This document shows positions 9,611 to 62,717 of a DNA stretch of 64,000 nucleotides, one piece after another. Positions within the stretch are counted from its first letter, which is position 1; each line of letters starts with the position of its first letter. Both the position numbers and the translations under genes were made by a program. The notes beneath the pieces are model-generated. The model saw nothing but the letters and a program-made list of their open reading frames with translations. It had not been told where the DNA came from and did not search any database. The DNA is taken from positions 518 to 64,517 of the forward strand of contig VHDE01000013.1 in NCBI GenBank assembly GCA_016871515.1, given 5' to 3'. This DNA is from Verrucomicrobiota bacterium (GTDB taxonomy: Bacteria; Verrucomicrobiota; Verrucomicrobiia; Limisphaerales; SIBE01).

Positions 9611-9746
9611 CGTAGCGCAGACTTTCAGTCTGCTGTATCGCAGAATTGTATTCTGCGGATCGTCCGCAAGTTCGAGCGTCCTGGAATGTGCGGACGGTAT
9701 GCCGATTGCAAATCGGCGATACAGCAGACTGAAAGTCTGCGCTACG
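9611..9746. repeat. 136-bp REPIN (inverted REP pair), 'gcagaCtttcaGtctgc' variant
   Basis: It has perfect 30-bp terminal inverted repeats, cgtagcgcagactttcagtctgctgtatcg and cgatacagcagactgaaagtctgcgctacg. Each arm carries a 7-bp-stem hairpin preceded by GTAG. Internal hairpins are cgcagaattgtattctgcg and ccgattgcaaatcgg. Confidence 0.85.
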
Positions 9747-9879
9747 ACGAAGGCAAGCGCGCTAACCATGTGGGCCGCGCTTCCGGCAAACCAGTGCTAG
9801 CAGATGCGAAACCCGAATGAGCACTCTCGGCGAGCCTCCTGGTTTGCTTACGAAATCGCTGCTAATCTTCTTTCATGAA

Positions 9880-12009
9880 TTATTTCGTGTGAGCCAAGGG
9901 TAATAGTTCGAACTTTCCTTCCCATCCCAAACTTGCGGCGGTCCTTTTCGGAAATTCCCAGCCTTGGTCGTCGGCGTGAGATTGATAAAGACGAATCTTG
10001 GAACGTTCTGCCGCCATTGCGACCGCTTGGGGCACGTCCAGGAAGCGCAGCACATTCAAATAATCCGGCCCATCCCGATGCGAGTTGGGCACGTTTTGAA
10101 ATTCAAGCTGACTGACATTTGGTTCAAAAAGGGAAGCATAAAGACCGTTCACCGCCATCGAACCTTTCGCGCGCAACGACACGGGCGCGTTTCTCAATCC
10201 CTCAAGGGAGCGGAGCGCCTGAATGCCGCGTCGAATGTCCCAAACACGCATTGCGTCCACGGTCTCGCCCAAAAGCATATACCTGCGACGCTGTTGGAGA
10301 CGTTTGGCTTCGCTCAAGTTTGAGGCCGTTGGCCCGATGCCCCGCGGCGCGATCCACGCGAAGGCGGTGCGCTGGCTGGCTAACTCTTCTTTGATCGAAG
10401 CGAAACGACTCCCTGAAACTGCGAACTTCGTTGAGCTAGGGCCGGCCAGCGTCTCAATCTCTTGTTTGGTAAGGCTCTGAAAACTCTCGCGAAGCAGAGC
10501 CGTCCAATCCGCCCAGTCCTCATCATCCATGATCTGCACAACGAGCCGTTCAGGTTTGGCACGTGAATTCTGAAGCAGGTAGATCGGCAGTTGGACACTC
10601 GGCTGACTCGAATATTCGCAGGCTCGCAAAAGGATGCCATCATCATCGACCGAAACGAGCGGTTGCATAGTGAGTGAAAGCGCTTGATCGGGCCAAGCGC
10701 GGAAAACCTTTTCCTGCAGAGCCGCCGTCCACGCTTGGCGTTGTTCGGTCCACTGCGATGCGGAAACGGGAACAGTTGGTTTTGGCGCGAGCGGAACGAA
10801 TGTTTCGTGAATCCTGCTGGTCCGTTCATCGGCGGGCAACGTCTCGAATACTTTGAGTTGATCGGGCGTGAAGAAACGCCGGGCCGCCACTTCAATGACG
10901 GGGTCCTCGCCTTTGAGATGCCGGTTAAACCAGCGAAACACGGGCAATTGCAAATCTTGCGTGTCCTTGTGCGGCCCTTCGGTAATCAGCAAACCCAGAG
11001 AGTTGGTCGCGCCATAAAGCTTGTAGATGTTCGCAACCTTGGCATGGATGCGAGCGACTCCGTCCAAGGGAAAGATCCAGTCCTTGTCCGAATTGCAGAT
11101 CAATAACGGCCGCGGAGCAGCCAGCGCCGCGACCATCGCGTAATCCCAGCGAAAGGTATTCACGATGAACATGCAATCGCAGTGGCCTTCGACGGCGCCA
11201 TCGACGACATGATTCTGAAGGTCCGTGATCCCTGCCACGGGCGCGGCGACCTTGATGCGATCATCGAGCGCCGTGATCCACCAACTGTACGCTCCGCCGC
11301 CCGAACGGCCTGTGACTCCGATGCGGTTCGGATCGACCTCCGGACGCGACTGGAGGTAATCCACCGCGCGGAGGCTGTTCCACGCTTCGACGCCAGCCGA
11401 GCTATAACCGCGCGCATTCCACCACCACATCCCTTCGCGGTAAGTGCCGTGATGGATGCCTTGGATCTCTCCGAGTTGCACGGTGTCAACCGTCAGGCAG
11501 ACGTACCCGTTCCTCGCGAACCACGAACCATGATGCTCGTAACCAGCCTTGTTCCCGAAGCTCACGCCATTGGTGATAAGGCGGGCGTGACCGCAAAGGT
11601 AAAGAATCGCCGGCGCGGGCTTCTGCAGTTTCTTTGGCAGAAATAGATTCGCCGTGACATAGAGGCCAGGCATCGATTGAAAATGCAGTTTCTCAACCGT
11701 GAACAACTCGGAGTCGATTTTGCCTGTGATGACTGGTTTCAAATCGGTCCGCGCGGGCAGGGGAGATAAGCTCAGCATTTCGAACAACTGTTGCCGATAT
11801 TCGGTTCGTTTCGCTTTCCAGTCGTCGAGCGTCTTAATATCGGCCAAAGAGCGATTCGCTAGCGCTGCCGTGCGGCTTTTGAAGTAATCGGCGAGCATCT
11901 GATCGCCGCGCGATGGCTGGGATGATATGTCAGCTGCAAGCAAAAAAGCCGGAGACAAAGTCGCGAGCAGAGCAAGAGAATAGAGGCGTGCGCAAGCGTA
12001 GATTTTCAT
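9880..12009 (-). CDS. alpha/beta hydrolase (acetyl xylan esterase/AXE1-like N-terminal half) with C-terminal extension, secreted
   Basis: 709 aa with a signal peptide. Nucleophile elbow GVTGRSGGGAYSWW. Surrounding blocks (LYLCGH..., VAAPVAGITDL, GHCDC) are typical of AXE1/dienelactone-hydrolase-like esterases. Confidence 0.7.
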   Translation of the reverse strand: MKIYACARLYSLALLATLSPAFLLAADISSQPSRGDQMLADYFKSRTAALANRSLADIKTLDDWKAKRTEYRQQLFEMLSLSPLPARTDLKPVITGKIDSELFTVEKLHFQSMPGLYVTANLFLPKKLQKPAPAILYLCGHARLITNGVSFGNKAGYEHHGSWFARNGYVCLTVDTVQLGEIQGIHHGTYREGMWWWNARGYSSAGVEAWNSLRAVDYLQSRPEVDPNRIGVTGRSGGGAYSWWITALDDRIKVAAPVAGITDLQNHVVDGAVEGHCDCMFIVNTFRWDYAMVAALAAPRPLLICNSDKDWIFPLDGVARIHAKVANIYKLYGATNSLGLLITEGPHKDTQDLQLPVFRWFNRHLKGEDPVIEVAARRFFTPDQLKVFETLPADERTSRIHETFVPLAPKPTVPVSASQWTEQRQAWTAALQEKVFRAWPDQALSLTMQPLVSVDDDGILLRACEYSSQPSVQLPIYLLQNSRAKPERLVVQIMDDEDWADWTALLRESFQSLTKQEIETLAGPSSTKFAVSGSRFASIKEELASQRTAFAWIAPRGIGPTASNLSEAKRLQQRRRYMLLGETVDAMRVWDIRRGIQALRSLEGLRNAPVSLRAKGSMAVNGLYASLFEPNVSQLEFQNVPNSHRDGPDYLNVLRFLDVPQAVAMAAERSKIRLYQSHADDQGWEFPKRTAASLGWEGKFELLPLAHTK

Positions 12010-12063
12010 AATCCGAGTTCAAAGCATGCGACCGCAGGAATACTCCGGCAAGTATTTTGGTGC

Positions 12064-12215
12064 TTTTGGAGTGCGGCCATGGAGTCTAGTCTGCGCAATC
12101 GCCGCTTTGGCGTAAAAGAGCCAGGACGTGTCCCGAACTGCGTGGCGTTTTCGGAGTGCGGACGCCAAAGCGGTGACTCCGCAGACTCCGTCACCGCAGT
12201 CCAAGACGCTGTCGC
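12064..12215. repeat. composite REP-like palindromic region (approximate bounds)
   Basis: Duplicated motif ttttggagtgcgg / ttttcggagtgcgg. Inverted pair gccgctttggcgt / acgccaaagcggt. Hairpin gtgactccgcagactccgtcac. Confidence 0.4.
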
Positions 12216-12308
12216 GACGACGGATGCTCCGGCCCATCGGTTCTCTACTCTACAAGTGCGCGCGCTTTGGCTCTTCAGACCCAATTGGGGCCGCGCGGAC
12301 CAACTCGC

Positions 12309-14248: not shown

Positions 14249-14251
14249 CCA

Positions 14252-17300: not shown

Positions 17301-17425
17301 ATGAGATTGGAACAGGAGAAAACAAAGGAAGCGAAGGTCCGGCAGTTTCGACTCTGACAGAGTCTAAGTCAATAACGTCCTGAAATGCGCTTGCTTTTTT
17401 TGGATCGCACGTCCTGATATACGGC

Positions 17426-22547: not shown

Positions 22548-22577
22548 TAAAGGGTTGAAACAAGCTCGAATTCTCTT

Positions 22578-23429: not shown

Positions 23430-23485
23430 GCGCGGCCCACGTGCGTCAGGGCAATGGCATTCAACGAACCACGAACTTTCACTTT

Positions 23486-23611
23486 CCATGAACCTCCTGG
23501 TATGTAGTCCCGCCTTTAGGCGGCAGCATTCGCTGGGAGCGAAACGGGCTTTGCGGATTGCAATTGCACCGGCTGAAGCCGGGACTACGTGCCCCAACAG
23601 TCGGTTCATGG
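23486..23611. repeat. MITE/REP-like element bounded by CCATGAACC...GGTTCATGG (126 bp)
   Basis: Same 9-bp termini as the other copies. Its reverse complement aligns along its full length with the copy at 2974-3099. Confidence 0.75.
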
Positions 23612-25941: not shown

Positions 25942-26050
25942 AGGAGCGGAGCGTTCACGCTGCAGAAACTTCGAATTGGGCCGCAGCGTTCTCAAGATTT
26001 CGGAACGTTTGAACATGCGAACGTTTCTGCAGCGTAAACGCTGCGCTCCT
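25942..26050. repeat. REPIN ('aggagcgcagcgtttacgctgcag' family)
   Basis: The left arm aggagcggagcgttcacgctgcagaaac matches the reverse complement of the right arm gtttctgcagcgtaaacgctgcgctcct with 2 mismatches in 28. It lies between two convergent CRTAC1-like genes. Confidence 0.65.
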
Positions 26051-29772: not shown

Positions 29773-29954
29773 AGCTGAAACTAAAGTGCGGTGATCGGAA
29801 AAAGCAAGACCGCTGTTCCCGATAGTTTTGGTTCTCGCAAGAAATGGCCATTTGCATTTGAAAGACCTGTGCGATTCTTTCCTGTTGCTGCGGTGCGTAG
29901 TCCCGGCTTCCGCTCAATGCCTTTCGTTAATTCAAGGCCGTGTGGCAAATGGTT

Positions 29955-30156
29955 GTCCTGAAGGGACAACGTGAAAATAGCCCGGCGTTTCAACGCCGGG
30001 AACCGAATCGCCCGAGACGTAAGTCCCGAAGGGACGGTTGAATTGCATGGCAAGGGTGAACGGTTCAACCGTCCCTTTCGGGACTCTCGTGTTCATCGGC
30101 CCAACCCGGCGTTGAAATTGAAACGCCGGGCTATTTTCACCGTGTCCCTGCGGGAC
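29955..30156. repeat. ~200-bp palindromic MITE-like element
   Basis: The left half gtcctgaagggacaacgtgaaaatagcccggcgtttcaacgccggg...gtcccgaagggacggttgaa mirrors the right half ttcaaccgtccctttcgggac...cccggcgttgaaattgaaacgccgggctattttcaccgtgtccctgcgggac. Confidence 0.65.
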
Positions 30157-30186: not shown

Positions 30187-30276
30187 AGGCTTCAGCCGGT
30201 GCGGCTGCAATGCGCAATTCCGTTTCGCTGCCAGCAAATGCTGCCGCCTCAAGGCGGGACTGCATGCCGGGAGGTG
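30187..30276. repeat. degenerate copy of the CCATGAACC-family element (lacks intact termini)
   Basis: The segment aggcttcagccggtgcggctgcaatgcgcaattccgtttcgctgccagcaaatgctgccgcctcaaggcgggactgcatgccgggag aligns with the interior of the copies at 2974 and 23486. Confidence 0.5.
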
Positions 30277-38235: not shown

Positions 38236-38371
38236 CGCAGCGCAGACTTTCAGTCTGCTGCATGGCAGAATGGCGATCGGGATGCCGCCCGCACTTTCCA
38301 GGACGCTCGAACTGCCGGGCGATTCGCAGAATGCAATTCTGCCATGCAGCAGACTGAAAGTCTGCGCTGCG
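38236..38371. repeat. 136-bp REPIN, 'gcagaCtttcaGtctgc' variant
   Basis: It has perfect 30-bp terminal inverted repeats, cgcagcgcagactttcagtctgctgcatgg and ccatgcagcagactgaaagtctgcgctgcg. It lies between the peroxidase stop and the next gene start. Confidence 0.85.
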
Positions 38372-50869: not shown

Positions 50870-53800
50870 CTAACTTGCCTTGCGGAAGGCGCGGCTCGCG
50901 GCGCCGAATGCAGCCAGTACAACAAACACGCCGATGAGGATCGACAGGCGCAGCCGCCAGGAAGCGGTCCTTGCCGCGACCGCCTCCAGTTCAATCCTCA
51001 AGTCCGCCCATGGATCCACGAGCACGGCACGCTTGAAGGTGAGGAGCCGGCCTTGTTCGGGAATAGACGCGCGCATCGCAACGGGACTGCTGACGGCGGC
51101 ATCCTGCTGCTGAATGAGTCGTTCGGCCAAGCGCATGAAAGCGGCGTTTTCATCCGCGGTGTTGCGATCGATAATCTCCTTCGCGTCCTGTTGGGTGTAG
51201 GTAACTCCTTCGCGACTCCGCAGGTCACGCACCCTTGCGCCCAGTGCCGTGGTGTCACCAGCTACTGCCGCTTGGCGGACGTTCAGCCCGACCAAAGCCT
51301 GTTGCAGCTTCAGATTGTGCAATTGAACGCGAGCATCTTCATTGAACGCGTTGTCATGCTGGCTCAAGCCGTAGGCGGCCTGGAATGCGCGTCGCGCCTG
51401 CTGCGGGTCGCCGCGTTCGAGCAGCGTATTGCCCATAGCCAGGAGTTCCTCGGCTTCTTTCGTTTTGCCGCGTTGCAGAGCAGCCTCATTTTGAAGATAA
51501 GTCTGCAAATCAACCGCGGCGCTCCGAGGCGCCATTTGGTCCTGTTGCAACTGCAGGGTCCCCGCCCAATCTTTGACGCGCCATTTCTCACTGAGATAGA
51601 CCCGCCATGTGATGTCCTCCAGCGGCAAATCAAATTTCGGGGCGAGCAGGTCAAGATCGAGCGAGCGCCTGCGAGATGAACCAATCTTGCTGCTGTAAAA
51701 TATTTCCACTGGGATCGCTTTCCCGGAGCGCGCTTGCGGTTCGAGCGGAACCAAAATGCGGTCCCCTTCGCGCCACGGCCAAACGCCGCTTTGATTCACG
51801 AACGCAAACCAAAAACGCGCGTCTGCTGGTAACGTGAGATAAAGCAAACGTTTGTCGCCTGGCAACATCTCGAGACGCGCTTGCGTGAGCATAACACCAT
51901 CATCGGAAATGACGGAGGTCAGCGTGACATTGTTGACGCGAGCGGGCAAAAGCTTCGCGGCTTCGTGGCGGTCCAGTTTCAATGGCAATTGAAACGACGG
52001 TTCAACGAGACGAAACGCGAAATTGGCCGAGACTGCTGACAAGTCCTGCTGCAGCGCGCGGGGAATGCTTTGCCACTCGGTCGTTTGCAGCGAAGCCGGC
52101 AGCGCATCGATGCGGACTTGTTGACGGCCTCGGGCTTGCACTGTGACGAAGCCGCGTTGCAGGTTCACGTCCGCCGTTTGGACGCCACGCAGAACGGTCT
52201 CGGTCGCGGTGTCTGCGACGGCAGTCTGATAAGTGACTTGCAACAAGTATCGACCAATCACACGCCGATGCAGCTTGATTTCCCACGCTTGCAAATTATT
52301 CGTCACCCCGCCTGCAATTGGGAGGAAACCGGAAACTTGGTCGCCTTGAAAACGGACGCTTCCGGCATTGGTCGGCAAGAAAACGCGGAACGCTTTCAAG
52401 CCCGTGTTCTCGATCTGGTATTGCAAGTTTGCCCCAACGTTTACCAGGGCTTCACTGACAGTTGCATGTTGCAGGCTCGTCACCTGAATCCACGGATCGA
52501 CTTGTTCGATGTCCAGCGCCAGATTCCACGGAACCTGCAGAATGCGGAAGGCGAGCACGCCCTTCTGCTGGATGCCTGTCTTTTGCGGGTCCAGCTGTGT
52601 CACGCCATTGCGCGTGCCCGGTTGCAGCCGCATGCCTTGGTCCGGCACAATCAAGAGAGTTCCGCGCTGCTTGCTGGCTTCGCGCAAAACGAGCTGTGGA
52701 ACGGCCCAATTGTTCGTGGTCTTAACACCGGCTCCCGACAAACTGATGGCGAACTGTTGCGGCCCGGCCGTCTTGCCGCGCAAGTGCAGCGTGATAATCC
52801 GTCCAGCATCAGCGCGCAACTCGGTCCAATGGCTCAACGCTTGGCCACTGATCGACTCCACATCGAGCGCGCCGGGCAACACAAAACTCAGGCGGAAAAT
52901 GCCCGCGCGCGTAATATCGACCGACAGGTTCGACGCAAGAACTGTCCGGTCTTCGCCCAATGATACGGTGTCCTGTGTTTCGACGCGCACGTCCGGCTCG
53001 ACTGGAGAGGCTCGGACCGAAACCGTAGCTCCAGTCTCCGTGTATCGAAACGCGCGGCGGACGGTCAGCTCAGGAATCTGCGCCTGGAGCATTTGCGGTG
53101 CGCTAACGGGATAATCTTCGAGATTGATCGGGGAGAGATTGCCTGCGTTCACGGAATCGAGTTGAACTTCGCGGCCCGTCGCAATACCAAGCAAACCGAT
53201 CTGCCCCGCCGCCTGCTCGATAGAAAGAAGTCCAATCGATTGTTCAAAGGGCAATGGGCCGGTAGGAACTTGTGAGCGGATCAGCAGCGTGAAAGGACGC
53301 GACTGCGCCGGGTTCAAATTCACGCGGAGCCTGCGCGTGTCGGGATCGAAACGCCAGAGCGACGCGATCGATTTTGGTGGCAGTGGTTGGTTGGTGGCGG
53401 CATCGGTCCCGGGTGTAGGATCGATTGCGCTGACATCCGTGATCGTCGCGCCGGTTGGGACGTTAAAGACAAGCTCCGTAAGTTCTCCCTGGGCCGGGCG
53501 AATGACGGCGTGATGCGCACCTTCAATTACACCCGCAGTCGGGACGTAAAGTTGAGAGATTTCAGCATAGAAGACCGCTCTTTCCCGCTTCACATCACGG
53601 CTGCGCGGGCGCCAGTTGATCCAGGCGTCGTTCACGGGCGCGAGGACGAGGTTCGCCATGGTGTTGCTGTTGGAAGTCGTGCGTTCGATGGAAGCGGCCT
53701 GCGCTGAGAATACGTCCACATCAAGATTGGCGAGGGTCAACCGAAGCGGATTGATCAACCCATGTTGCGTGGGGAGAACGAAGCCGCTTTCGCTAAGCTT

Positions 53801-56800
53801 GGCCGTCACGTGGATTTGGTATCGCAATTCGACATCGAACGCGCCGGTTTCCAAAGCTAGCAACTGATGCGCACGCCTGCCGTTGGCCGGAGCCTGAATC
53901 AGTCTGAGTGCGTTCGTCGGATAAACAACGCTCGTCAATACGGCCGGCTCGAACAGGAGAGGAAGCGTCTGGTTTTTCTCGGCCGTCCAATGGATCTTGG
54001 CCGTGCCGAGCGCGAACCTTTCTTCGACGCGAATTTCCTGCGCGACCGATTCGGCCAGCGCCGGCGCTCTGGGAAATGGAGTAGGGGTGTAAAGGGCGGC
54101 GGGAACTGGATTGGCTTGCGGATTGGCCGTCTGCGCCTGAGCAACCAGCAGCGTGCCATCGTAACGCAGAGTTCCACTCTGCTGTATCGCAGACTTGTAG
54201 TCTGCAGCGAGTCCGAGAGCCGAGACATTCCCGCGAGATCGAGCGTTCTGCCGACTGAAAGTCGGCGATACAGCAGAGTGAAACTCTGCGTTACGAGGCG
54301 CGCTCGAATGCGCAATGACCGGCGGCGCGGATTCAGACCACAGTGACAGCAGGGTTCCAATGAGCAGCGATGCCACAGCCGGCGCCGGGCCGCTGTCCGG
54401 CGGAGTCAGCGCCGCGGACTTTGGTTTTCTTGGCAGTTGCCAAAGCCGGCGCAGAGCCGGAATCAAAGTGTGGAGCAGTAAGAAGAGGAGAATAATTACG
54501 ATGAAACTCGGCGCTCCGCCGGGTGCCCGCAGTCCCGCCCAGGCCACAAGCGTCCATCCGAACAGCCATCCGACCGCCGTGAACCACATGCGATTCGTGA
54601 TCCATCCATAAACCCAGACCACCAGCGCAAGCAATGCCGGCCATGCGTAGCCAAGGAAACTGAACACCGTGGCTTCAGCTTTGATGTTTGCTACTTCGAC
54701 GTTAAGCCCAGTGCCGGCTTGTTGTACTGGCGCTAGAAACGTTACCTCGCGCGAAACAGCGACGTTCTGCTGCGCGGCCAAGTCACCAAGGCTGATCAGT
54801 GCTGCGATCGCCATAGCCACGGCTATCAGACCCAGGACCGTCCCGAACAGATGGCGCGCGCTGTATCTGTAAACGCCTTCACGCACCGTCCATCGCCAAA
54901 CCACAAGCGCAATCCCAACTAATAACAGCGCAGCAATCAGCGAAACCAGAGCTTGCGCAGCGTCCAGACCGCTGAATGCTTTGTTCAACTGGGCGAAGCC
55001 AGAAATATCGGCGACACCATCCACAGGCGTCAGTGAACCCCGGCGATAGATCAAACGTTGTCCTGCGTCTGGCGCAAGTTTCCATTCTGCGAGCATCACG
55101 GGTGCGGCGACGATTGGTGTGGCGATGGCCACCCGTTTGGGGGTTGTTGACCGCGAAGCCAACTTAACGTCCACGGCCAGGACCGCGTTGGGATCCGCTC
55201 GCTGCGGCAAGGGAATCATGTTCGCTTGTCCATCCAGGACCGGCACGACCGGAGCGCCGTTCACTGTTGCGGACCACAATTGCGTTCCAGCCGGGAGCGT
55301 CACTCGGAAATGTGAATTGCCGCGATTCTTGACGAAATAATGCGCGTCCGTCAGGACTTGTCCTTCTTTCGAAATTCGTGTCAACAGCGACGCCCGGTCA
55401 ACGACTTGGCTGAGAGAATCGCCCTGGACCAGCGGGTTGAGCGCGAGCCGCAAATTGAATGGCCGCGATGTGTAACGATAAGCCGCGAGAACTGGCGCAT
55501 CGAAGAAGAGTCGATATTCCGGAGGCACTTCACCAGTTTCGAGCGGCAACAATCCTGGCGACACATCCACCGGATTGACCTGAAATTGATACGCGCTAAT
55601 CACCAGCGTGTGGCCTTGTTCCGATTGCGCGTCGAGCGGGCGCGCTCCGGTAAATGCGAGCGTTTCGCCTTGCGCTCGAAACGGCCGCTCATAGGTTGCG
55701 AGCAGCGTATAAGCGCCGGACACGGGCGAGTGCAATTGCACGACGTAGCCATTGGTCGCTCTTTGCCAATTGCGAATGTCTTTGCCGATAAACTCGACGT
55801 TGAAGTATTCGTTCGAGAGCTCGATCCTCAGCGTTGATATCGGCGCGCCTGAAACCAGATAGTGCATCACGCTGCTGCCGTAAGCGATGCCTTCGCCGAT
55901 GGAAAAAAGATGGAAAGCATCCGCTTGCACCGTCTGCGGCAAACGCTCCACGCGCAACGTTGCCTGCCAAGCCGGTTCGCTGAGTCGAAATGCCAACTGA
56001 ATGCCAGCGACCTTGCGCGGAAAGAACGCCGTTGCGATCTCGGTCAATGCTTGGGTCCTGTCGGGTGTGATGCGGAAACCCGCATCCGCCGAGACGCCCA
56101 AATGGCCACGCACCGATTTCGCTCGGGAAATCTCGATCCGTGGCAACACCCAATTAGTTTGGCCCAGCGCTTGATGGCGTTCGACGCGGAGCTGAACGAT
56201 TTGCCGGCCGGAAACAGGTTGGCCATACACCAGACGCAGTTCGGCGTCTGGATCGCCCTCCGGCTCGCGCAGAAAATAATCGCTCAGGCCGGACGCGTTC
56301 AGGCGCGCGATGGCATATCCTTTTGGGACGCGCATCAGCAACTCCCGCATGGGCGCTTCGCGGATGTCCAATTCAAACTCCGCGTCGATGGCGAGTTCGT
56401 TCTCGGCGTGATGATATGCGAGCACTTCGGAGACGCTGAGTTCAGGCAAGATTTGGTCCGCTTGAATTCGCAGGGAGAATTCGCCGCCAGAAAAGCGATA
56501 AGCAAACCGCTGGCTGCCGCCAGTCGCAAAGAGCGTTCTCGTGACGTCCGTTTCCGGAAATTGTTCGGGAGAAATCTGAGAAAGTCCGGCGGCTTGGACA
56601 ACTTCGAGGCGCACCGCACCTTCGTTGAGTATCCGAACATAACCAGCTAAACGGGTCGCGCCTTCAGGCCGTAGTTGCATGGCATCGACGGCTTGGGGAA
56701 GCGCCCCGATGGATGTCTGCATTTGAACTTGGAGCGCGAACTGATCTTTCTGGGGTTGATTAAACTGAATGACGAGGCGCCGGCCAGCAGAGTTCGCAAT

Positions 56801-58174
56801 AGGTTCAACATTCCATGCGAGCACATGAGCGCCTTGGACACGTGTGACTTCGCCGGCGCCGCGCAACAACAAGGCGACGCGGTTCAACTCGCCTTGCATG
56901 ACTTTGAAATCAAGCAACGCCATTTGCCGCATGAGCCCGGGACTGACGCCGATCTGAGAAAGCATTTCGGCCGCGTAGAACAGTTTGCCCTCGGCTTCGC
57001 GCCGAGCTTCTTTCCAGGAAAGTTTCACCGCGCCGTCCGCCGGAAGGTAACCCACGAATTGGCTGCCAGCGCGTTCGGGCCGAGCCGCCCCGGGAAACTC
57101 GAACTGAGTATCGGCGATCAATCCTTCGAGAGCGATCGGTTGCAATGCACTCGGTGCAACGCGGAAATCGACTGAGTTCCAACCATTGGTTTGGCTAACT
57201 GCGGCCTTGAACTTGAGCTGAATGGGAAATTCGCCCGACCGATCGAACGCAATGATGAAGCGGCCTTGCTCGAACCGGAGACGCCAATGTGGATGCGTTT
57301 TCAGATCGGTCAAAGCAATGTTCCCTTGCAACAGCGCTATCGAACCGCCGCGCGGATTTTTGATGCGCGCGTTGGCGGTCAAGACAAAGCTTACCGTTTG
57401 GTCGCTGAGTTGCCCGCTCAGCTTAAAGTCGCGCAACACAACTCGGCGCGCTTCGGGGTCCGCGATCGTAATGCGGAGCGGGATATGGTAGGGCGAGCCG
57501 TGGAAACGGAAGGCGAGCGGATCTGGACTATCCGGCTTGGCCTCGATGCGCAATGATGATGGCAAGAATTTGGGATCGATGGGCGCCAGGCCGGTGGGGC
57601 TGTCGGGCTGGACATCGAGGTCCGGCGTCACTTCAATCGTCACGTAACCGTTGAATAACGCTGGACTGGATGGAGTGAGGGTTAAGGCGGTTAATGGATT
57701 CGTCCATGTGCGGAGATCGCGTTCGGCCGAAATCGTGACCGAAAGTTGCGTGATTGGTTTGTCGCTTTTGCGAGGGCGAAGGATCAGCGTGCGCACGCCG
57801 TTGGTTTCTTGGCGGATGCTCCAATCTTGCAGCAACTCGCCGGTGACCTGGCGTATTTCACCTTCCCCGCTGATCGTGAGTGGGAGTTCTTTGGGCTCGC
57901 CTTGAAGAATGTCGAAGGTGGCTGCGATGGAATGGGCGATTTTTTCGCGCGAGACTTTGATCGAGTGCTGGAGAGCGGTGGCGTAAATAAGCTTGTCTTT
58001 CTCGCCGGACAAACCGCTGAGCACCGCTTCGATGATCAGCCGCGCCCTCCCGTCTTCGACGCCGCCGTTGATGGAAAGGTTTCTTAATTCTGCGGTCGCG
58101 CCCGAAACGTTGTTCGCGGTCAGGATCGATAACGCAAGGAGGATGGATATGGGGATGCGTACGGGAATGTTCAT
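50870..58174 (-). CDS. giant hypothetical membrane protein (2434 aa): two paralogous beta-rich halves, each ending in TM segment(s), joined across a REPIN
   Basis: Uninterrupted ORF with the N-terminal signal peptide MNIPVRIPISILLALSILTANNVSG. The first half ends in ~5-6 TM helices. The second half ends in a TPR-like segment plus one TM helix (LSILIGVFVVLAAFGAA). The halves share blocks such as VTLPAGTQLWSATVNGAPVVPVLDGQANMIPLP and LTLPADARFWFAFVNQSGVWPWREGDRILVPLEP. It may really be two genes. Confidence 0.6.
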   Translation of the reverse strand: MNIPVRIPISILLALSILTANNVSGATAELRNLSINGGVEDGRARLIIEAVLSGLSGEKDKLIYATALQHSIKVSREKIAHSIAATFDILQGEPKELPLTISGEGEIRQVTGELLQDWSIRQETNGVRTLILRPRKSDKPITQLSVTISAERDLRTWTNPLTALTLTPSSPALFNGYVTIEVTPDLDVQPDSPTGLAPIDPKFLPSSLRIEAKPDSPDPLAFRFHGSPYHIPLRITIADPEARRVVLRDFKLSGQLSDQTVSFVLTANARIKNPRGGSIALLQGNIALTDLKTHPHWRLRFEQGRFIIAFDRSGEFPIQLKFKAAVSQTNGWNSVDFRVAPSALQPIALEGLIADTQFEFPGAARPERAGSQFVGYLPADGAVKLSWKEARREAEGKLFYAAEMLSQIGVSPGLMRQMALLDFKVMQGELNRVALLLRGAGEVTRVQGAHVLAWNVEPIANSAGRRLVIQFNQPQKDQFALQVQMQTSIGALPQAVDAMQLRPEGATRLAGYVRILNEGAVRLEVVQAAGLSQISPEQFPETDVTRTLFATGGSQRFAYRFSGGEFSLRIQADQILPELSVSEVLAYHHAENELAIDAEFELDIREAPMRELLMRVPKGYAIARLNASGLSDYFLREPEGDPDAELRLVYGQPVSGRQIVQLRVERHQALGQTNWVLPRIEISRAKSVRGHLGVSADAGFRITPDRTQALTEIATAFFPRKVAGIQLAFRLSEPAWQATLRVERLPQTVQADAFHLFSIGEGIAYGSSVMHYLVSGAPISTLRIELSNEYFNVEFIGKDIRNWQRATNGYVVQLHSPVSGAYTLLATYERPFRAQGETLAFTGARPLDAQSEQGHTLVISAYQFQVNPVDVSPGLLPLETGEVPPEYRLFFDAPVLAAYRYTSRPFNLRLALNPLVQGDSLSQVVDRASLLTRISKEGQVLTDAHYFVKNRGNSHFRVTLPAGTQLWSATVNGAPVVPVLDGQANMIPLPQRADPNAVLAVDVKLASRSTTPKRVAIATPIVAAPVMLAEWKLAPDAGQRLIYRRGSLTPVDGVADISGFAQLNKAFSGLDAAQALVSLIAALLLVGIALVVWRWTVREGVYRYSARHLFGTVLGLIAVAMAIAALISLGDLAAQQNVAVSREVTFLAPVQQAGTGLNVEVANIKAEATVFSFLGYAWPALLALVVWVYGWITNRMWFTAVGWLFGWTLVAWAGLRAPGGAPSFIVIILLFLLLHTLIPALRRLWQLPRKPKSAALTPPDSGPAPAVASLLIGTLLSLWSESAPPVIAHSSAPRNAEFHSAVSPTFSRQNARSRGNVSALGLAADYKSAIQQSGTLRYDGTLLVAQAQTANPQANPVPAALYTPTPFPRAPALAESVAQEIRVEERFALGTAKIHWTAEKNQTLPLLFEPAVLTSVVYPTNALRLIQAPANGRRAHQLLALETGAFDVELRYQIHVTAKLSESGFVLPTQHGLINPLRLTLANLDVDVFSAQAASIERTTSNSNTMANLVLAPVNDAWINWRPRSRDVKRERAVFYAEISQLYVPTAGVIEGAHHAVIRPAQGELTELVFNVPTGATITDVSAIDPTPGTDAATNQPLPPKSIASLWRFDPDTRRLRVNLNPAQSRPFTLLIRSQVPTGPLPFEQSIGLLSIEQAAGQIGLLGIATGREVQLDSVNAGNLSPINLEDYPVSAPQMLQAQIPELTVRRAFRYTETGATVSVRASPVEPDVRVETQDTVSLGEDRTVLASNLSVDITRAGIFRLSFVLPGALDVESISGQALSHWTELRADAGRIITLHLRGKTAGPQQFAISLSGAGVKTTNNWAVPQLVLREASKQRGTLLIVPDQGMRLQPGTRNGVTQLDPQKTGIQQKGVLAFRILQVPWNLALDIEQVDPWIQVTSLQHATVSEALVNVGANLQYQIENTGLKAFRVFLPTNAGSVRFQGDQVSGFLPIAGGVTNNLQAWEIKLHRRVIGRYLLQVTYQTAVADTATETVLRGVQTADVNLQRGFVTVQARGRQQVRIDALPASLQTTEWQSIPRALQQDLSAVSANFAFRLVEPSFQLPLKLDRHEAAKLLPARVNNVTLTSVISDDGVMLTQARLEMLPGDKRLLYLTLPADARFWFAFVNQSGVWPWREGDRILVPLEPQARSGKAIPVEIFYSSKIGSSRRRSLDLDLLAPKFDLPLEDITWRVYLSEKWRVKDWAGTLQLQQDQMAPRSAAVDLQTYLQNEAALQRGKTKEAEELLAMGNTLLERGDPQQARRAFQAAYGLSQHDNAFNEDARVQLHNLKLQQALVGLNVRQAAVAGDTTALGARVRDLRSREGVTYTQQDAKEIIDRNTADENAAFMRLAERLIQQQDAAVSSPVAMRASIPEQGRLLTFKRAVLVDPWADLRIELEAVAARTASWRLRLSILIGVFVVLAAFGAASRAFRKAS
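54160..54295. repeat. 136-bp REPIN, 'gcagaGtttcaCtctgc' variant, inside the giant ORF
   Basis: Terminal arms are cgtaacgcagagttccactctgctgtatcg and cgatacagcagagtgaaactctgcgttacg, with internal hairpins gcagacttgtagtctgc and ccgactgaaagtcgg. It is translated in the ORF frame as RNAEFHSAVSPTFSRQNARSRGNVSALGLAADYKSAIQQSGTLRY. Confidence 0.85.
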
Positions 58175-58190
58175 GAGCAGTGTTCTGGAA

Positions 58191-58219
58191 ATCGCGATAA
58201 CCGAAAAAACAAGCGCTCC
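58191..58219 (-). promoter_or_regulatory. candidate ECF-type promoter (GGAGCG-N17-CGCGAT) upstream of the giant ORF
   Basis: The minus-strand sequence reads ggagcg cttgttttttcggttat cgcgat, ending 16 nt before the ATG at 58174. It resembles the GGAGCA-N16-CGTCTA box upstream of the ECF sigma gene at 63315. This is pattern match only. Confidence 0.2.
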
Positions 58220-58223
58220 GGAC

Positions 58224-58454
58224 CGTAACGCAGAGTTTCACTCTGCTGTATCGCCGACTTGCAGTCGGCAGAGCACTCGACCTTGCGGAAACTTCTCGAT
58301 TTGGCGGACGCGCTGCAGATTGGAAATCTGCGATACGGCAGAGTAAAACTCCGCGCTACGATCTGGCACTCGAATTTGTGGGAGCTTCTCGATTGTCGGA
58401 CACGCCGCAGAGTGAAACTCTGCGATACAGCAGAGTGAAACTCTGCGTTACGCC
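58224..58454. repeat. 231-bp REP cluster (one 137-bp REPIN plus a partial REPIN with tandem hairpins), left flank of RAYT
   Basis: By eye it is identical base-for-base to 59243-59473. It starts cgtaacgcagagtttcactctgctgtatcg and ends gcagagtgaaactctgcgatacagcagagtgaaactctgcgttacgcc. Confidence 0.9.
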
Positions 58455-58536
58455 GCTGGCCGCGACATTGAGGTTGCAAATAACCGAGTCGACGCGCTAG
58501 CCTCCGCACGTGTTTCCCAAGGAGGAAAATCCGCGG

Positions 58537-59247
58537 ATGGATCGAGTGCGCTTTGAGCTTCGTTCGGACGGGATCAAACCGGAGGAAACAAACCCGTTGC
58601 GTTCCGGTGTTCATACACGAGGCTATCTGCCACACGTCAAGCGCGAAGGCGCGCGTTACTTTGTGACATTTCGCCTCGCCGATTCGTTGCCCAAAGAGGT
58701 CTTGCTCAAGTATCAGGCGGAGCGCGGGGAGCGGTTGCAGCTTTTCTATGCGCAGCACGACGCCGCGAAAGGCCCGGGGACAGCCCTCCCGAAGCAAGAG
58801 ATGCTGGAAGAAATCGAGCGCGAGTACAATCGCAAGGTCGAGCGTTATCTTGATCAAGGCTGCGGGGAATGCTGGCTGAGACGACCCGAAATTGCGGACT
58901 TGGTCACTGAAGCCGTGCGATTCTTTGATGGCAAGCGATATTGGCTGGATGCTTGGGTTATCATGCCAAATCACGTGCATGGTGTCTTGTGGCCGGCGCC
59001 GAACCACTCGTTGAGCCATATCCTGCAAAGCTGGAAAAGCTACACAGCTCGGCAGGCGAACAAAGTTCTCAATCGGACGGGACATCCATTTTGGCAACGA
59101 GAGGCATTCGATCATTGGATTCGCGATGATGAGGAACATGCGCAGTGCTGTCGTTATGTGACAAACAATCCGGTAAAGGCTGGCCTGTGTGCAACGCCGC
59201 GGGACTGGAAATGGAGCAGCGCGTGGGGTGATGGCCAGCCATCGTAA
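58537..59247 (+). CDS. REP-associated tyrosine transposase (RAYT; IS200-like Y1/HUH family)
   Basis: ORF 58510..59247 with ATG at 58537, preceded by aaggagg (58519-58525). HUH motif in WVIMPNHVHGVLWP. Downstream blocks: SWKSYTARQAN, FWQREAFDHWIRD, YVTNNPVKAGL, W.WSS. N-terminal block GYLPHV. The TAA stop lies inside the right REP cluster. Confidence 0.8.
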   Translation: MDRVRFELRSDGIKPEETNPLRSGVHTRGYLPHVKREGARYFVTFRLADSLPKEVLLKYQAERGERLQLFYAQHDAAKGPGTALPKQEMLEEIEREYNRKVERYLDQGCGECWLRRPEIADLVTEAVRFFDGKRYWLDAWVIMPNHVHGVLWPAPNHSLSHILQSWKSYTARQANKVLNRTGHPFWQREAFDHWIRDDEEHAQCCRYVTNNPVKAGLCATPRDWKWSSAWGDGQPS

Positions 59248-59473
59248 CGCAGAGTTTCACTCTGCTGTATCGCCGACTTGCAGTCGGCAGAGCACTCGAC
59301 CTTGCGGAAACTTCTCGATTTGGCGGACGCGCTGCAGATTGGAAATCTGCGATACGGCAGAGTAAAACTCCGCGCTACGATCTGGCACTCGAATTTGTGG
59401 GAGCTTCTCGATTGTCGGACACGCCGCAGAGTGAAACTCTGCGATACAGCAGAGTGAAACTCTGCGTTACGCC
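59243..59473. repeat. 231-bp REP cluster, right flank of RAYT
   Basis: Identical to 58224-58454, at an offset of 1019 bp. Confidence 0.9.
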
Positions 59474-59525
59474 TTTGGGCAGTTTCTATGCGTGGGATGA
59501 ATTGGTTCGGCCTGTTCATCTCGAT

Positions 59526-62500
59526 CTATCTTCCCGCCATGCTCTTCGCTTGCCGGATCATCCATTCGAGCTTTTTAGGACGTGCATCGGCGCCATAGAC
59601 TTCGGGCACACCATTCAGTTGCGCGAGCAAACGGTCGGTCGTCACTTCGCCGGCGTATGGACTTGAAATGAGCCATTCCGAGAACGCACTTGCGGTCGCG
59701 GCTAGGCGCATAGCCGGCCCAGCTTGTTCCAACGCCACAGCATTTCCGCTGTAAGGCACCGGCCATTCATGCTCGCGATATTCGGTTGTATTCGGTTTCT
59801 TGTATCGCACTCGCACGACGGCCAACGGCCCGTCCCCCTGCGGATTCACCTCAACGACGTAAAGCGCGTTGCCCGATTCCGCCGCACCAATCTCGGCCGC
59901 ATCGACGGTGTTATCGCGGAATTGTTCTTTGGTCAGCTGATGTTTGGCATACCCGATTTGGCGGCAGGCCGTCACCCGTTTCGGATTGAATTCAACCTGA
60001 GCTTTAACATCCGACGCTGCCACTCGCAGAGAGCCGGCGAGTTGAGCGACAAAACCAGTTGCGGCCTCAGCCGGTGTGTTAATAAAACCGTAACGCCCAT
60101 CACCATTGCGCGACAGCACCTCCAACAAATCGTCGTTGAAACCTTCCCACCCAATTCCGAAGCAATCGAGCGCGATCCCTTGTTTGCGATGATTTTCAAC
60201 TTTCCGCTTCAGAGTGTCCGGATTAACGTCACCGAGATTCGCCGCGCCGTCGGTGAGCACCACGACGCGGTTGCCGCCGCTCACGTAATGCCGCAACGCC
60301 GTCGCGTAGGCGAGATTCAGCGCATCTTCGAGATTGGTGCCGCCTTGTGGTGCGAGTTGGCTCACCCGTTCCGCGACCTGGGCCGCTTGGTTGCCTGGCG
60401 CACCATCCACCCAGAGCCGGGCTGTGCGCGCAAACGCAATGACACTGAGTTTGTCTTCGGGCTTCAATTGCGTTGCCAACACGCGCAATGCCTCCCGAAG
60501 AATCTGCACGCGATCCGCCCGCTCCATCGAGCCGGAGTTGTCGAGCAGCAACACGAGATTCAACGGCTGGCCGGGTTGACGGCCTTGCGCCGCCGTCTTG
60601 ATCGAGAAACGCAGCAAATCACGATTATGCGCGAACGGATAGCGAGCGCGTTCCCAAGCAAAGGCTACGGGGACATCTGGCGGCGGCTCGGAATCGCCGT
60701 AATCGAACGCATTGATGAATTCTTCGCTGCGCACGGTCGCAGGCTCGGGCATGACTCCCTTTTCCAGACTGGCCAAGGCAAGCTTGAACGACACATCGCT
60801 GACGTGCAGCGAGAAGGTCGAGAATGCGTTTTCGCGCGTCTGGACTTCGGGCTGCGGAACTGGCGCGCCAGCCACGGGTTTGCGCACGGCTGTATCGGCC
60901 TCTTCTCGGTTGGACTCTCCACGCAGGCGATCAAGTTCCGTGTGCGCTTGAGCATCCTTTTTCTCCTGCTCGGCAAGCTGTTCTTTCAAGACACGAGCGC
61001 TATCGTCGGCCGCCTGTTTGCTCCGTTCCGCGCGTAAATCGCGATAAACCTCGGCGATGGTGTTGGCGATCTGGGCAGCCTCTTCTGGTTGATCGCTCTT
61101 CACTCGAATATCGAGTTCGCTCGAATTGGGAACCTGCCGCACATCAACGCGGCCTAATAGCGCTTGAAATGCTTCGGCATTATTCAGCTTCTCGCCCTTG
61201 CCATGCTTCTCGGCCCAAGCTTCATTCAGATTCAATTTCTCAATCACCTTGTAGAGAACTTGCTTGGACTTGACCTTCTCGAATTCAGTCGTGACGAAGT
61301 AGGGATCGAATCCAACTTGAGGCTGAGCGCGCGTCACGAGCGGCGCCATATCAGTCGCATCTTTCCCGACGCTGATGCGCGCGCTTCGTTCGACTTTCCC
61401 GCTCAACGCTCCGCCGATGCGTCCCCACAAGCTTGAATCTCGTGGTGACTCAGCTTGCGCAACATCGACAATCTGGACAGGACCATTGTTAGGCGCGAGC
61501 GGCGGTCGACTTGCTCCTGTAGCTGACCGGGTCGCATGACCTGCGCGCAATTCACCCCATTCACGTTTGGCTTTGGACTGCGGTGTCTCCTGCGCGACTT
61601 GAAGCTCTTCGATCCGTTGTGTCGACTCGGCTGGTCTCGCTCCAGACTTGCTTTCAGTGCCTGGCTTGGCTGCTTTGGCGAGGGTGCGTGCTCCAATATC
61701 CGCTGCCCACGCCTGGTTCCGCGGCTGACCAACCTCTGCCTCTGCCTCTATTGGTGGAAGAACAATGGACGACCGATTCGACTCCCGCAGCGCCTCCTCT
61801 GTCACTTTGGAATCTTTTCCGAGGCTGCTCATGCCCGGGCGCATCAACCCATAACGTTCCACATCCATATCGCGAATCGTCTTGATTCGAACCTCGCCAT
61901 CTGGCGGCGCTGCTGTAGTGGAAAAGTCGGATTTTAAACTGGAGACAACGCCGGCGTTTTTGCTGGGAATTATGCCTAAGCTATCGCCGAGGGCTGCGAG
62001 AGGTTTCCCGATCGATTCGCGCTGCGACTGAACATTGTCGATCACAGCCGCGCCGAAGTCCTTCTTGTTCACACCAAATTCCAAAGCTCCGTTCTCTGCG
62101 GCAGCCACTGCCACGAAGGATGTTTCCTTTGAGCGCTCGAGCCGCCTGGCGAATCCCGGCAGCAACGCGACCGTGCCCAGTAGCGCGACCAATGCGGCGG
62201 CAAGGCTCATCGGGACAAACCAACGGCTCTCTCGATGGACTGAGGCGGCGAATTCCTTCGGGGCAACCGTCTTAAAATGCTGCAGCAGCTTCTCGCGCCG
62301 TTCAGCGGACAATCGCAGGGGCGTCTGTTGCGCAGCCGCTTGTTCCACCGGGTTGGCTGCAACTTCAGCGACCAGCCCAATCGTTTGCTTGAGGCGTTCA
62401 TGAAGTTGCGCCAGTTCGGCATCTTGCGCGATCTCCTCGCGCAAAGCAGCAGCTTCTTCCGGCGATAGCTCCCCGTGCAGCAGAGCAGTTAAGCGCGCTT

Positions 62501-62576
62501 CCATTTGTTCGCGCGGTGTTTCAGAAAAACCGTCGTTCATAAAGAGCCCCTTCGGATTTCGATGTGTGAGAGGCAT
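59526..62576 (-). CDS. anti-sigma factor fused to GumC/Wzz-like and YfbK-type vWA (vWA + DUF3520-like) periplasmic domains
   Basis: 1016 aa, with an alternative start at ATG 62540 (MNDGFSE...). The N-terminus EARLTALLHGELSPEEAAALREEIAQDAELAQLHERL is typical of an anti-sigma domain. TM helix WFVPMSLAAALVALLGTVALL. Chain-length-determinant-like block KSKQVLYKVIEKLNL...VDVRQVPNSSELDIRVKSDQPEEAAQIANTIAEVYRD followed by a coiled coil. Then STFSLHVSDVSF..., the MIDAS motif LVLLLDNSGSM, VVVLTDGAAN and a C-terminal YfbK-like tail. Confidence 0.75.
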   Translation of the reverse strand: MPLTHRNPKGLFMNDGFSETPREQMEARLTALLHGELSPEEAAALREEIAQDAELAQLHERLKQTIGLVAEVAANPVEQAAAQQTPLRLSAERREKLLQHFKTVAPKEFAASVHRESRWFVPMSLAAALVALLGTVALLPGFARRLERSKETSFVAVAAAENGALEFGVNKKDFGAAVIDNVQSQRESIGKPLAALGDSLGIIPSKNAGVVSSLKSDFSTTAAPPDGEVRIKTIRDMDVERYGLMRPGMSSLGKDSKVTEEALRESNRSSIVLPPIEAEAEVGQPRNQAWAADIGARTLAKAAKPGTESKSGARPAESTQRIEELQVAQETPQSKAKREWGELRAGHATRSATGASRPPLAPNNGPVQIVDVAQAESPRDSSLWGRIGGALSGKVERSARISVGKDATDMAPLVTRAQPQVGFDPYFVTTEFEKVKSKQVLYKVIEKLNLNEAWAEKHGKGEKLNNAEAFQALLGRVDVRQVPNSSELDIRVKSDQPEEAAQIANTIAEVYRDLRAERSKQAADDSARVLKEQLAEQEKKDAQAHTELDRLRGESNREEADTAVRKPVAGAPVPQPEVQTRENAFSTFSLHVSDVSFKLALASLEKGVMPEPATVRSEEFINAFDYGDSEPPPDVPVAFAWERARYPFAHNRDLLRFSIKTAAQGRQPGQPLNLVLLLDNSGSMERADRVQILREALRVLATQLKPEDKLSVIAFARTARLWVDGAPGNQAAQVAERVSQLAPQGGTNLEDALNLAYATALRHYVSGGNRVVVLTDGAANLGDVNPDTLKRKVENHRKQGIALDCFGIGWEGFNDDLLEVLSRNGDGRYGFINTPAEAATGFVAQLAGSLRVAASDVKAQVEFNPKRVTACRQIGYAKHQLTKEQFRDNTVDAAEIGAAESGNALYVVEVNPQGDGPLAVVRVRYKKPNTTEYREHEWPVPYSGNAVALEQAGPAMRLAATASAFSEWLISSPYAGEVTTDRLLAQLNGVPEVYGADARPKKLEWMIRQAKSMAGR

Positions 62577-62581
62577 GGCGC

Positions 62582-62717
62582 CGTAACGCAGAGTTTCACT
62601 CTGCCGTATCGCAGAGTTTCACTCCGCGGCGCGCCCGCAATTCCAAAGCCCACCGACAGATCGAACGCTCTGCCGACTGCAAATCGGCGATGCGGCAGAG
62701 TGAAACTCCGCGTTACG
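62582..62717. repeat. 136-bp REPIN, 'gcagaGtttcaCtctgc' variant, between the ECF sigma and anti-sigma genes
   Basis: Terminal arms are cgtaacgcagagtttcactctgccgtatcg and cgatgcggcagagtgaaactccgcgttacg, with 2 arm mismatches. It fills almost all of the 151-bp sigma/anti-sigma spacer. Confidence 0.85.

Follow-up and report, generated by a model that had tools for sequence, protein, structure and literature searches.

A REPIN family and its RAYT gene in a Verrucomicrobiota genome, with structural constraint on individual hairpins

The dispersed repeats described here very probably belong to a REP/REPIN family with its cognate RAYT gene, carried by a Verrucomicrobiota genome from a freshwater metagenome. 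They were analysed in a stretch of 64,000 nucleotides (contig VHDE01000013.1, referred to below as the window), which contains six full elements of 136 or 137 nt, two partial copies and one intact RAYT gene. The pattern GCMGANTNNNANTCKGC has 23 exact matches in the window, for 0.04 expected from shuffled sequences, and the family is present in about 25 Verrucomicrobiota metagenome-assembled genomes (MAGs), with over 100 sites spread across 93 blocks of 8 kb. This is a known kind of element, and the family is a well-preserved fresh example of it, not a novel class. Structural constraint acts on its mini-hairpins and not on the 136-nt fold, because only the local hairpins covary.

Copies in the window

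The features of the window are listed below; copies are named in the text by their first coordinate.

9611-9746, plus strand: full REPIN, 136 nt (covariance model, 147.9 bits)
38236-38371, minus strand: full REPIN, 136 nt (covariance model; 85% complementary to 9611)
50870-58174, minus strand: host ORF of 2434 aa (translation), carrying REPIN 54160-54295 in a variable linker
54160-54295, plus strand: full REPIN, 136 nt, inside ORF 50870-58174
58224-58360, minus strand: full REPIN, 137 nt, upstream of the RAYT gene, first part of a 236-nt composite repeat
58362-58452, minus strand: partial REPIN, centre and one arm with two hairpins (covariance model, 63.4 bits), second part of the composite repeat
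58537-59247, plus strand: RAYT gene, 236 aa (Pfam Y1_Tnp; NCBIfam REP_Tyr_transpos; PDB 4ER8)
59243-59379, minus strand: full REPIN, 137 nt, downstream of the RAYT gene (covariance model), identical to 58224-58360
59381-59471, minus strand: partial REPIN, duplicate of 58362-58452 (covariance model)
62582-62717, plus strand: full REPIN, 136 nt (covariance model)

A previous sequence-only reading had listed five REPINs, all with correct coordinates and lengths (136 nt, or 137 nt for 58224-58360); the copy at 59243 is a sixth, and the two partial copies are also additions to that list. The same reading had proposed that elements occur in both orientations, and 38236, 58224 and 59243 are all inverted relative to 9611, although 38236 belongs to the same lineage as 9611. 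The 9611 copy, which folds at -61 kcal/mol (z = -13.9), is located between two genes of the minus strand (8586-9503 and 9880-12009). The 62582 copy lies between a sigma-70 gene (62728-63315, minus) and a vWA/YfbK-type gene (59526-62576, minus), beginning 5 nt from the start codon of the latter. An additional covariance-model match, at 25942-26050, proved to be a different palindrome and was rejected as a family member.

Of the six full copies, five are intergenic and one (54160-54295) lies within a gene; strictly, therefore, the family is not confined to extragenic DNA. The intragenic copy is read through in frame and encodes about 46 residues of the 2434-aa product, which has likewise been called on an independent JGI contig. 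Orthologues of this ORF at two related loci (L102 and L034) lack the element and are read as one continuous frame. The linker has 89 extra residues in the window, about 46 of them of REPIN origin, and the exact insertion boundaries are undefinable because the host linker is too divergent. Intragenic REPs have been documented elsewhere (PMC3733652, PMC6006769).

Architecture of the element

The element is laid out as 23+23+44+23+23 nt, that is, two inverted arms of 46 nt around a 44-nt spacer (136 nt in total). Each arm consists of two tandem 23-nt modules, giving four hairpins per element, and each module comprises GTA(G/A/T), a C and a 17-nt hairpin, GCNGANT-NNN-ANTCNGC, with a 7-bp stem and a 3-nt loop. 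The leader consensus is CGTAGC; of 76 elements, 65 have G as the last base of the tag and 10 have A. In the inner modules the tag is GTAT. The GTAG or GTAA tetranucleotide reported to precede the outer hairpins is found in the window copies, with the exception of 38236, which has GCAG. The two inner hairpins are of different types, conferring a polarity on the element, and exactly one of them is of the GCCGA type in 45 of 47 elements.

The fixed length that had been proposed is a property of the family and not of the window alone: the commonest length in many species is 136 nt, with about 70% of full sites measuring 134-137 nt, and length classes differ by entire modules (113-115 nt corresponds to 136 minus 23). 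Neither a conserved target nor a target-site duplication was found in the flanking sequence of the elements.

The centre is the least conserved part, with a between-genome identity of 0.38, versus 0.80-0.88 for the arms. Self-complementarity z-scores (mean -0.5, with 7 of 35 centres below -1.64) rule out a conserved stem in the 44-nt centre. An origin of the centre from captured host DNA was also rejected, because its identity exceeds that of shuffled sequences (0.26) and because it retains conserved ends and a weak YYGRAAYT motif.

The RAYT gene and its loci

The translation of the RAYT gene contains an HUH motif (NHVH) and a tyrosine motif (RYVTNNP, of the YxxxNP form). It matches the NCBIfam profile REP_Tyr_transpos (NF047646) with 100.8 bits (cutoff 80), over residues 123-236 only, and PDB 4ER8 with E = 1.6e-5, the HUH and tyrosine motifs being aligned. 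The NCBIfam IS200 profile (NF033573) gave 25.6 bits, below its cutoff of 55. JGI annotates homologues of the protein as RayT and, an identical protein aside, the nearest homologues are at most 75% identical.

The link between a REPIN-type family and a RAYT, first made for the window, is borne out by this profile match and by the orthologous RAYTs elsewhere that are flanked by the same element. REPINs of the same polarity flank the gene in the window and at three other loci (L028, L102 and L088), and at L110 an element is present on the 3' side; one of the nine RAYT-adjacent elements, at L110, has the opposite polarity. The TAA stop codon of the window gene sits within the GTAA of the downstream REPIN. 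The order large ORF, RAYT, vWA gene, sigma gene is conserved, and the RAYT, present in one copy in the window, occupies a syntenic position in three to four species. Stand-alone RAYT contigs of about 1.0 kb were considered as possible circles; given that their ends lie within the same REPIN hairpin, they are most simply read as assembly breaks. REPIN repeats are disruptive to metagenome assemblies.

Pairing and covariation

The outer hairpins occur as described before, with gcagaCt..aGtctgc at 9.6 and 38.2 kb and gcagaGt..aCtctgc at 54-62 kb, and the compensation of the C/G swap extends well beyond these copies: in unbiased scans that left the variable pair free, 105 of 111 and 111 of 111 matches were Watson-Crick paired. 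Across the four local mini-hairpins, 97.7% of cells are paired, and the covariation score is 0.222; shuffles gave 0.069 (the observed score being reached in 0/500) and slid controls no more than 0.064. Stem position 6 may be T·A, A·T, G·C or C·G in each of the four hairpins. Mismatches comprise 11 wobble and 30 other pairs; wobble pairs are not enriched, so the constraint fits the DNA level, on both strands. A stem position that varies freely and is yet compensated provides natural mutational evidence that the 17-nt hairpin is the constrained unit.

It seems unlikely that the element mainly serves the host as an RNA or DNA structure, for example by stabilising intercistronic mRNA or acting as an attenuator, and is kept by host selection with the RAYT association secondary. 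Several copies do lie between same-strand genes, and the gap between the sigma and vWA genes holds a full-length element in three species (the window, L028 and L098) with neighbouring proteins 65-73% identical; there the centre is nearly randomised, but hairpins and 136-nt length are intact, a conservation that could reflect a host function. However, the orientation of that element in the window differs from that in the other two species, and its distance from the start codon varies (5, 2 and 17 nt). Elements of the family are found in both orientations, within a coding sequence and between genes that diverge or converge; they carry no T-run terminator signature and no excess of wobble pairs, and no Rfam family matches any REPIN at the gathering threshold.

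Selection or replication acting on the folded form, as put forward in the sequence-only reading, is supported for the mini-hairpins because of their local covariation, and not for the 136-nt fold. A model in which the whole fold-back, arm paired with arm, is the main selected unit, such that the arms co-evolve, is unlikely. As single-stranded DNA, the window copies fold outer arm to outer arm with z-scores of -5 to -14, and 45 of 76 elements bear the same variant in both outer hairpins (25.9 expected). In 9611 the 30-nt arms are perfect, and in 38236 they reach 36 perfect nt; each of the three changes that separate the two copies has its counterpart in the opposite arm, in keeping with the co-variation initially noticed. 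Neither property is supported for the family as a whole: arm-to-arm pairing is no better than in column shuffles (85.5% versus 85.2%, 112/500), and the other listed copies have mismatches (1, 4 and 2 per 30 nt in 54160, 58224 and 62582, respectively). The median element has 8-9 mismatches in 46 nt, perfect arms of at least 30 nt being found in just 4 of 75 elements, and the inner hairpins are systematically non-complementary, with 0-3 of 47 elements paired at columns 32/106 and 44/94. The present sample suggests no depletion of arm mismatches relative to neutral expectation. In sister copies of the 38236 lineage, the GTAG-to-GCAG change is confined to one arm, and in 38236 itself the inner hairpin of the GCCGA type has its 3' half overwritten by the arms; the perfect arms of this copy are best explained by the copying of one arm onto the other.

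Stem variants

The C and G stem variants had been proposed to define two discrete sub-families, possibly served by different RAYTs. This is improbable, although in the window the two C/C elements (9611 and 38236) have a common centre, the G/G elements cluster near the RAYT, and contigs from Lake Tanganyika hold further C/C copies with the same centre. All four position-6 pairs occur in every hairpin, 31 of 76 elements (41%) differ in state between their two outer hairpins, including G/C and G/T mixes from Lake Tanganyika, and the RAYT-adjacent hairpins of five genomes display all four states (T, A, C and G). Because of these four states, the mixed elements and the presence of all states beside RAYTs, C and G are not RAYT-specific sub-families. 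The suggested search for a second RAYT paralogue, by tblastn, returned the single RAYT of the window and only orthologues in about 1.4 Mb of related loci.

It is very unlikely that the element is an integron recombination site of the attC type or a MITE that a DDE transposase moves: small size, terminal inverted repeats and ends (..TAAC/GTTA..) superficially like attC R boxes recall such elements, but target-site duplications and conserved flanks are absent, the copies are dispersed in both orientations with no cassette arrays, and the conserved adjacent gene is an HUH RAYT, neither a DDE transposase nor an integrase.

Mobilisation and maintenance

In the favoured reading, a REPIN family with its cognate RAYT, the protein belongs to the IS200-derived TnpA-REP family of HUH/Tyr enzymes that act on single-stranded DNA. 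It is presumed that the enzyme recognises the tag together with the hairpin folded in single-stranded DNA, and that it mobilises or maintains the elements. Watson-Crick pairing would be kept, with position 6 drifting through the four pairs, because the RAYT would read the folded hairpin. Copies seem to multiply as entire units, given that unlinked sites hold members of one lineage with a common centre (9611, 38236, L113, L139 and L171). They would then be long-lived, with the centre decaying and the hairpins and length retained, and the arms may now and then become identical when one is copied onto the other, as in 38236.

More tentatively, the element might be a polar, four-hairpin IS200/IS605-type miniature with distinct left and right ends, as suggested by the single GCCGA-type inner hairpin of almost every element, with spacing set by a multimeric RAYT synapse and with fold-back templated copying. 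If this were true, synapse geometry would account for the rigid 44-nt spacer and for the placing of modules at 23 nt, both preserved in many species with the spacer sequence nearly randomised, and the homogenised 36-nt arms of 38236 would reveal the templated copying step.

To our knowledge, work on REPIN-RAYT systems has so far been almost solely in Proteobacteria. The family is a clean example from outside that phylum, in Verrucomicrobiota MAGs, with an unusually regular layout. No new biological principle emerges from it, and it may serve as a handy set of substrates for RAYT biochemistry.

Comparison with known systems

One parallel in organisation is the REPIN-RAYT system of Pseudomonas fluorescens SBW25 and its relatives (Bertels & Rainey 2011, PMC3116915; 10.1101/2021.07.10.451892). 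Both have inverted REPs around a variable spacer, the REPs being conserved and the spacer poorly so, and an element-flanked RAYT that is syntenic and apparently vertically persistent. The Verrucomicrobiota element differs in its host phylum, in having four hairpins (tandem-doublet arms) instead of two, and in its consistently unlike inner hairpins (GCAGA/GCGGA versus GCCGA). The motifs of its RAYT (NHVH / WQ / YVTNNP) resemble Quentin subclass 2.4/2.7, and not Pseudomonas group 3 (subclass 2.5).

With the E. coli REP/BIME elements and TnpA-REP (PDB 4ER8; PMC3479197), the family shares a homologous enzyme, presumed recognition by GTAG tag and hairpin, and REP-type mosaics; the E. coli REPs are longer-stemmed and bulged, and the RAYT described here contains about 60 additional aa separating its first strand from the HUH region. 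IS200/IS605 elements (IS608) likewise have an HUH/Tyr enzyme, subterminal hairpins of the same orientation on both sides of the gene and no target duplication, whereas the tyrosine motif here is YxxxNP, not YxxxQ, and the gene looks like a syntenic gene present once, not a mobile one. Rickettsia palindromic elements resemble the intragenic copy, by description, as in-frame palindromic insertions adding a peptide in a tolerant region, although just one of the six full copies here is intragenic.

The GTAG-tagged REPs, among them those of Opitutus terrae, also of the Verrucomicrobia (Di Nocera et al. 2013, PMC3733652), have in common with this family the 5' GTAG tag, a 6-9 bp stem, head-to-head dimers with spacers alike in length and not in sequence, heterodimers, in-frame copies within genes and termini that furnish stop codons. 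REPs with a GTAG tag, spacers constant in length and variable in sequence, in-frame copies within genes and stop codons donated by REPs have all been published before; the comparison with GTAG-1 to GTAG-24 was made by description, not by sequence. Head-to-tail tandem dimers are reported to be rare among GTAG REPs (PMC3733652), whereas head-to-tail tandem modules are the rule inside each arm of the Verrucomicrobiota element.

Anatomy, copies and spread of the element

Reading of the sites and a repeat scan bore out the five full REPINs that the sequence-only reading had located in the window, and the scan added a sixth (59243-59379). When a covariance model was built from family members and run on the window, it matched these six and two partial copies, with three full copies in each orientation, in agreement with the earlier claim that both occur. 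Copies are named by their start coordinate.

REPINs and RAYT gene (REP-associated tyrosine transposase) of the window
9611-9746, orientation +, full REPIN
38236-38371, orientation -, full REPIN
54160-54295, orientation +, full REPIN
58224-58360, orientation -, full REPIN
58362-58452, partial REPIN, one arm and centre
58537-59247 (+), RAYT gene, Pfam Y1_Tnp match
59243-59379, orientation -, full REPIN
59381-59471, partial REPIN, one arm and centre
62582-62717, orientation +, full REPIN

Layout shared by every full REPIN of the window
Part 1: leader, 6 nt, CGTA(G/A)C
Part 2: hairpin, 17 nt (stem 7 bp, loop 3 nt)
Part 3: linker, 6 nt, CGTATC
Part 4: second hairpin, 17 nt
Part 5: centre, 44-45 nt
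Part 6: parts 1-4 mirrored

Given this layout, the repeat unit is a GTAG-tagged REP of 23 nt; each arm is a tandem doublet of such modules, with four hairpins per REPIN. The window contains 23 matches to the hairpin pattern GCMGANTNNNANTCKGC, where 0.04 would be expected. In 45 of 47 REPINs, C·G stands at stem position 3 of one inner hairpin and only one, the other having A·T or G·C, and the REPIN therefore has polarity.

A scan of species-representative genomes, with the variable stem pair left free in the pattern, yielded 93 blocks; they come from about 25 MAGs, almost all of them Verrucomicrobiota, and a metagenome scan gave 111 further matches. Length is 134-137 nt in 48 of 65 REPINs measured by arm pairing and in 51 of 73 full sites measured by the covariance model. 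Minor classes differ by module number or centre length (113-115 nt, or 136 minus one 23-nt module; 150-155 nt, with a longer centre), so the fixed 136-bp length first proposed holds as a strong modal class, not as an absolute rule. Between genomes, identity is 80-88% in hairpins, leaders and linkers and 38% in the centre, where shuffled sequence gives 26%; self-complementarity was not consistent among the centres examined.

The structure under constraint

Pairs were counted for two structures in a MAFFT alignment of 47 distinct REPINs.

Pairing and covariation (four local hairpins; arm-to-arm hairpin)
Cells paired: 97.7%; 85.5%
Cells paired, shuffled control: 89.9% (observed value reached in 0/500); 85.2% (reached in 112/500)
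Covariation score: 0.222; 0.085
Covariation score, shuffled: 0.069; 0.074
Slid controls: ≤0.064; ≤0.048

The proposal of selection on the folded form thus stands for the mini-hairpins (97.7% versus 89.9% paired) and fails for the arm-to-arm hairpin (85.5% versus 85.2%), in which the columns of the inner hairpins systematically fail to pair. Stem position 6, the variable pair of the 17-nt hairpin, takes three or four Watson-Crick states per hairpin and all four across the family. The patterns used for searching were free of any complementarity requirement there, making the following counts unbiased: the pair is Watson-Crick in 105 of 111 genome matches (16 combinations allowed) and C..G or G..C in all 111 metagenome matches, C..C and G..G never occurring. 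The compensated stem swap noticed in the window is confirmed by these scans. Since the variants all coexist within one genome, and even within one REPIN, a dimeric protein acting on double-stranded DNA would offer no reason for compensation, and the sensible reading is that the hairpin pairs within one strand. Wobble pairs are not enriched in the alignment (11, versus 30 other mismatches), which fits a DNA-level constraint acting on the two strands better than one confined to RNA.

Co-varying arms, by contrast with this, did not prove to be a family property: perfect arm runs of at least 30 nt occur in only 4 of 75 REPINs, and arm pairing is at the shuffled level. Outer hairpins carry the same variant in 45 of 76 REPINs (25.9 expected) and are unlike in 41%. 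The pair originally compared, 9611 and 38236, are the extremes of the arm-match distribution. The arms of 38236 match perfectly over 36 nt, overwriting half of a GCCGA-type inner hairpin at a position where the arms are mismatched in 71 of 75 REPINs, and in sister copies of its lineage just one arm has the GTAG-to-GCAG change. The simplest account would be that one arm of 38236 was copied onto the other, with no need for family-wide selection on the long fold.

The RAYT gene and its neighbourhoods

The RAYT scores 100.8 bits against NCBIfam REP_Tyr_transpos (cutoff 80) and only 25.6 bits against the IS200 model, whose cutoff is 55. In its match to E. coli TnpA-REP (PDB 4ER8) the HUH and Tyr motifs line up, and close homologues are named RayT by JGI; the REPIN/RAYT assignment is well supported. 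Identical 236-nt composites, each a full REPIN plus a partial one, flank the gene on both sides in direct orientation, and its TAA stop is the GTAA of the downstream REPIN. The identical protein occurs in Lake Tanganyika metagenome contigs and a 71-kb NCBI Verrucomicrobia MAG contig. Four metagenome contigs from independent assemblies (L006-L009, 1014-1070 nt) hold the RAYT alone, span almost exactly one 1019-bp repeat period and end inside the same REPIN inner hairpin; they most likely reflect assembly breaks at palindromes, a circular or tandem form of the RAYT unit being possible.

Orthologous RAYTs (65-76% identical) have full REPINs on both sides in three related loci (L028, L102, L088) and at the 3' side in L110. 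Polarity with respect to the gene is the same in eight of nine adjacent REPINs, and the stop codon again lies within a REPIN leader. The two flanking REPINs are more alike within a genome than when compared with those of other genomes, a sign of concerted evolution. These loci share the order large ORF, RAYT, vWA gene, sigma gene. In L034 (MAG DATCDZ; region 738-2464), the RAYT is absent from the interval separating the vWA gene from the large ORF; a 490-aa ORF is found instead, and a single full REPIN (2329-2464) remains, adjoining the large-ORF start. The C and G variants had been suggested to be sub-families served by different RAYTs. Position-6 pairs with T, A, C and G are all present in the hairpins nearest RAYT genes, which argues against this, and no second RAYT was found in the roughly 1.4 Mb of related loci searched.

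Location relative to host genes

A target motif or duplication was looked for in the REPIN flanks and none was found. REPIN 54160-54295 lies inside a 2434-aa ORF (50870-58174, -) and is read through in frame; the product is also called in an independent assembly. In L102 and L034 the orthologous ORF is uninterrupted and lacks the REPIN; compared with these, the window ORF carries 89 additional residues, in a variable linker. As usually 2-4 of the six frames of a REPIN are stop-free, there is nothing remarkable in this read-through. Within the extra linker sequence, 25 nt from the intragenic REPIN, lies a possible decayed REP hairpin (GCGGATTGGCCGTCTGC, 54118-54134) with two mismatches to the pattern, a stringency at which about 13 chance matches are expected. 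The ORF has no Pfam domain save a weak sub-threshold TPR match in its C-terminal half. Its halves are 21-24% identical (tblastn cross-hits), each preceded by a hydrophobic segment, and the ORF looks like an internal duplication.

At 59526-63315 (-), a sigma-70 (ECF-like) gene precedes the gene for a 1016-aa vWA/YfbK_C protein with an N-terminus resembling an anti-sigma domain. The gap between the two is taken up by REPIN 62582-62717, which lies 5 nt from the start codon; any ribosome-binding site of the vWA/YfbK_C gene would thus fall inside the REPIN. Three species have a full REPIN in this gap, but with differing orientation and start-codon distance, which makes common descent of that copy uncertain.

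Other elements in the window

The window also has three copies, 83-89% identical (2974-3101; 23484-23611, inverted; 30188-30275), of a non-coding element that is about 95 nt long and unrelated to the REPINs. It has short hairpins (GGCTTCAGCC, GCCGCCTAAAGGCGGG) and GGGAGGT at its end, with an ATG just after in two of three copies; it looks like a shared 5' leader, and had no Rfam match at E ≤ 1. An Acido-Lenti-1 RNA (RF01687) matches at full length at 29954-30000 (-), about 200 nt from one copy (37.2 bits; Rfam gathering score 37). A 109-nt palindromic element of different sequence (25942-26050, arms GGAGCGGAGCGTTCACGCTGCAGAAAC / GTTTCTGCAGCGTAAACGCTGCGCTCC) lies between convergent ORFs and matches the REPIN covariance model weakly (23 bits).

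Comparison with known systems

GTAG-tagged REPs are known in the Planctomycetes-Verrucomicrobia-Chlamydiae (PVC) phyla, including the verrucomicrobium Opitutus terrae, and heterodimers of different REP types, spacers unlike in sequence and similar in length, intragenic in-frame REPs and tag-donated stop codons have all been published (PMC3733652). In-frame insertions are also reported in PMC6006769, which describes RAYT subclasses with the motifs NH[IFV]H / WQ / YIxNNP that the motifs of the window RAYT resemble. A variable spacer between conserved REPs is the textbook description of a REPIN (10.1101/2021.07.10.451892). Three features of this family are less usual: each arm is an obligate tandem doublet, polarity is consistent, and length is sharply kept across many species.
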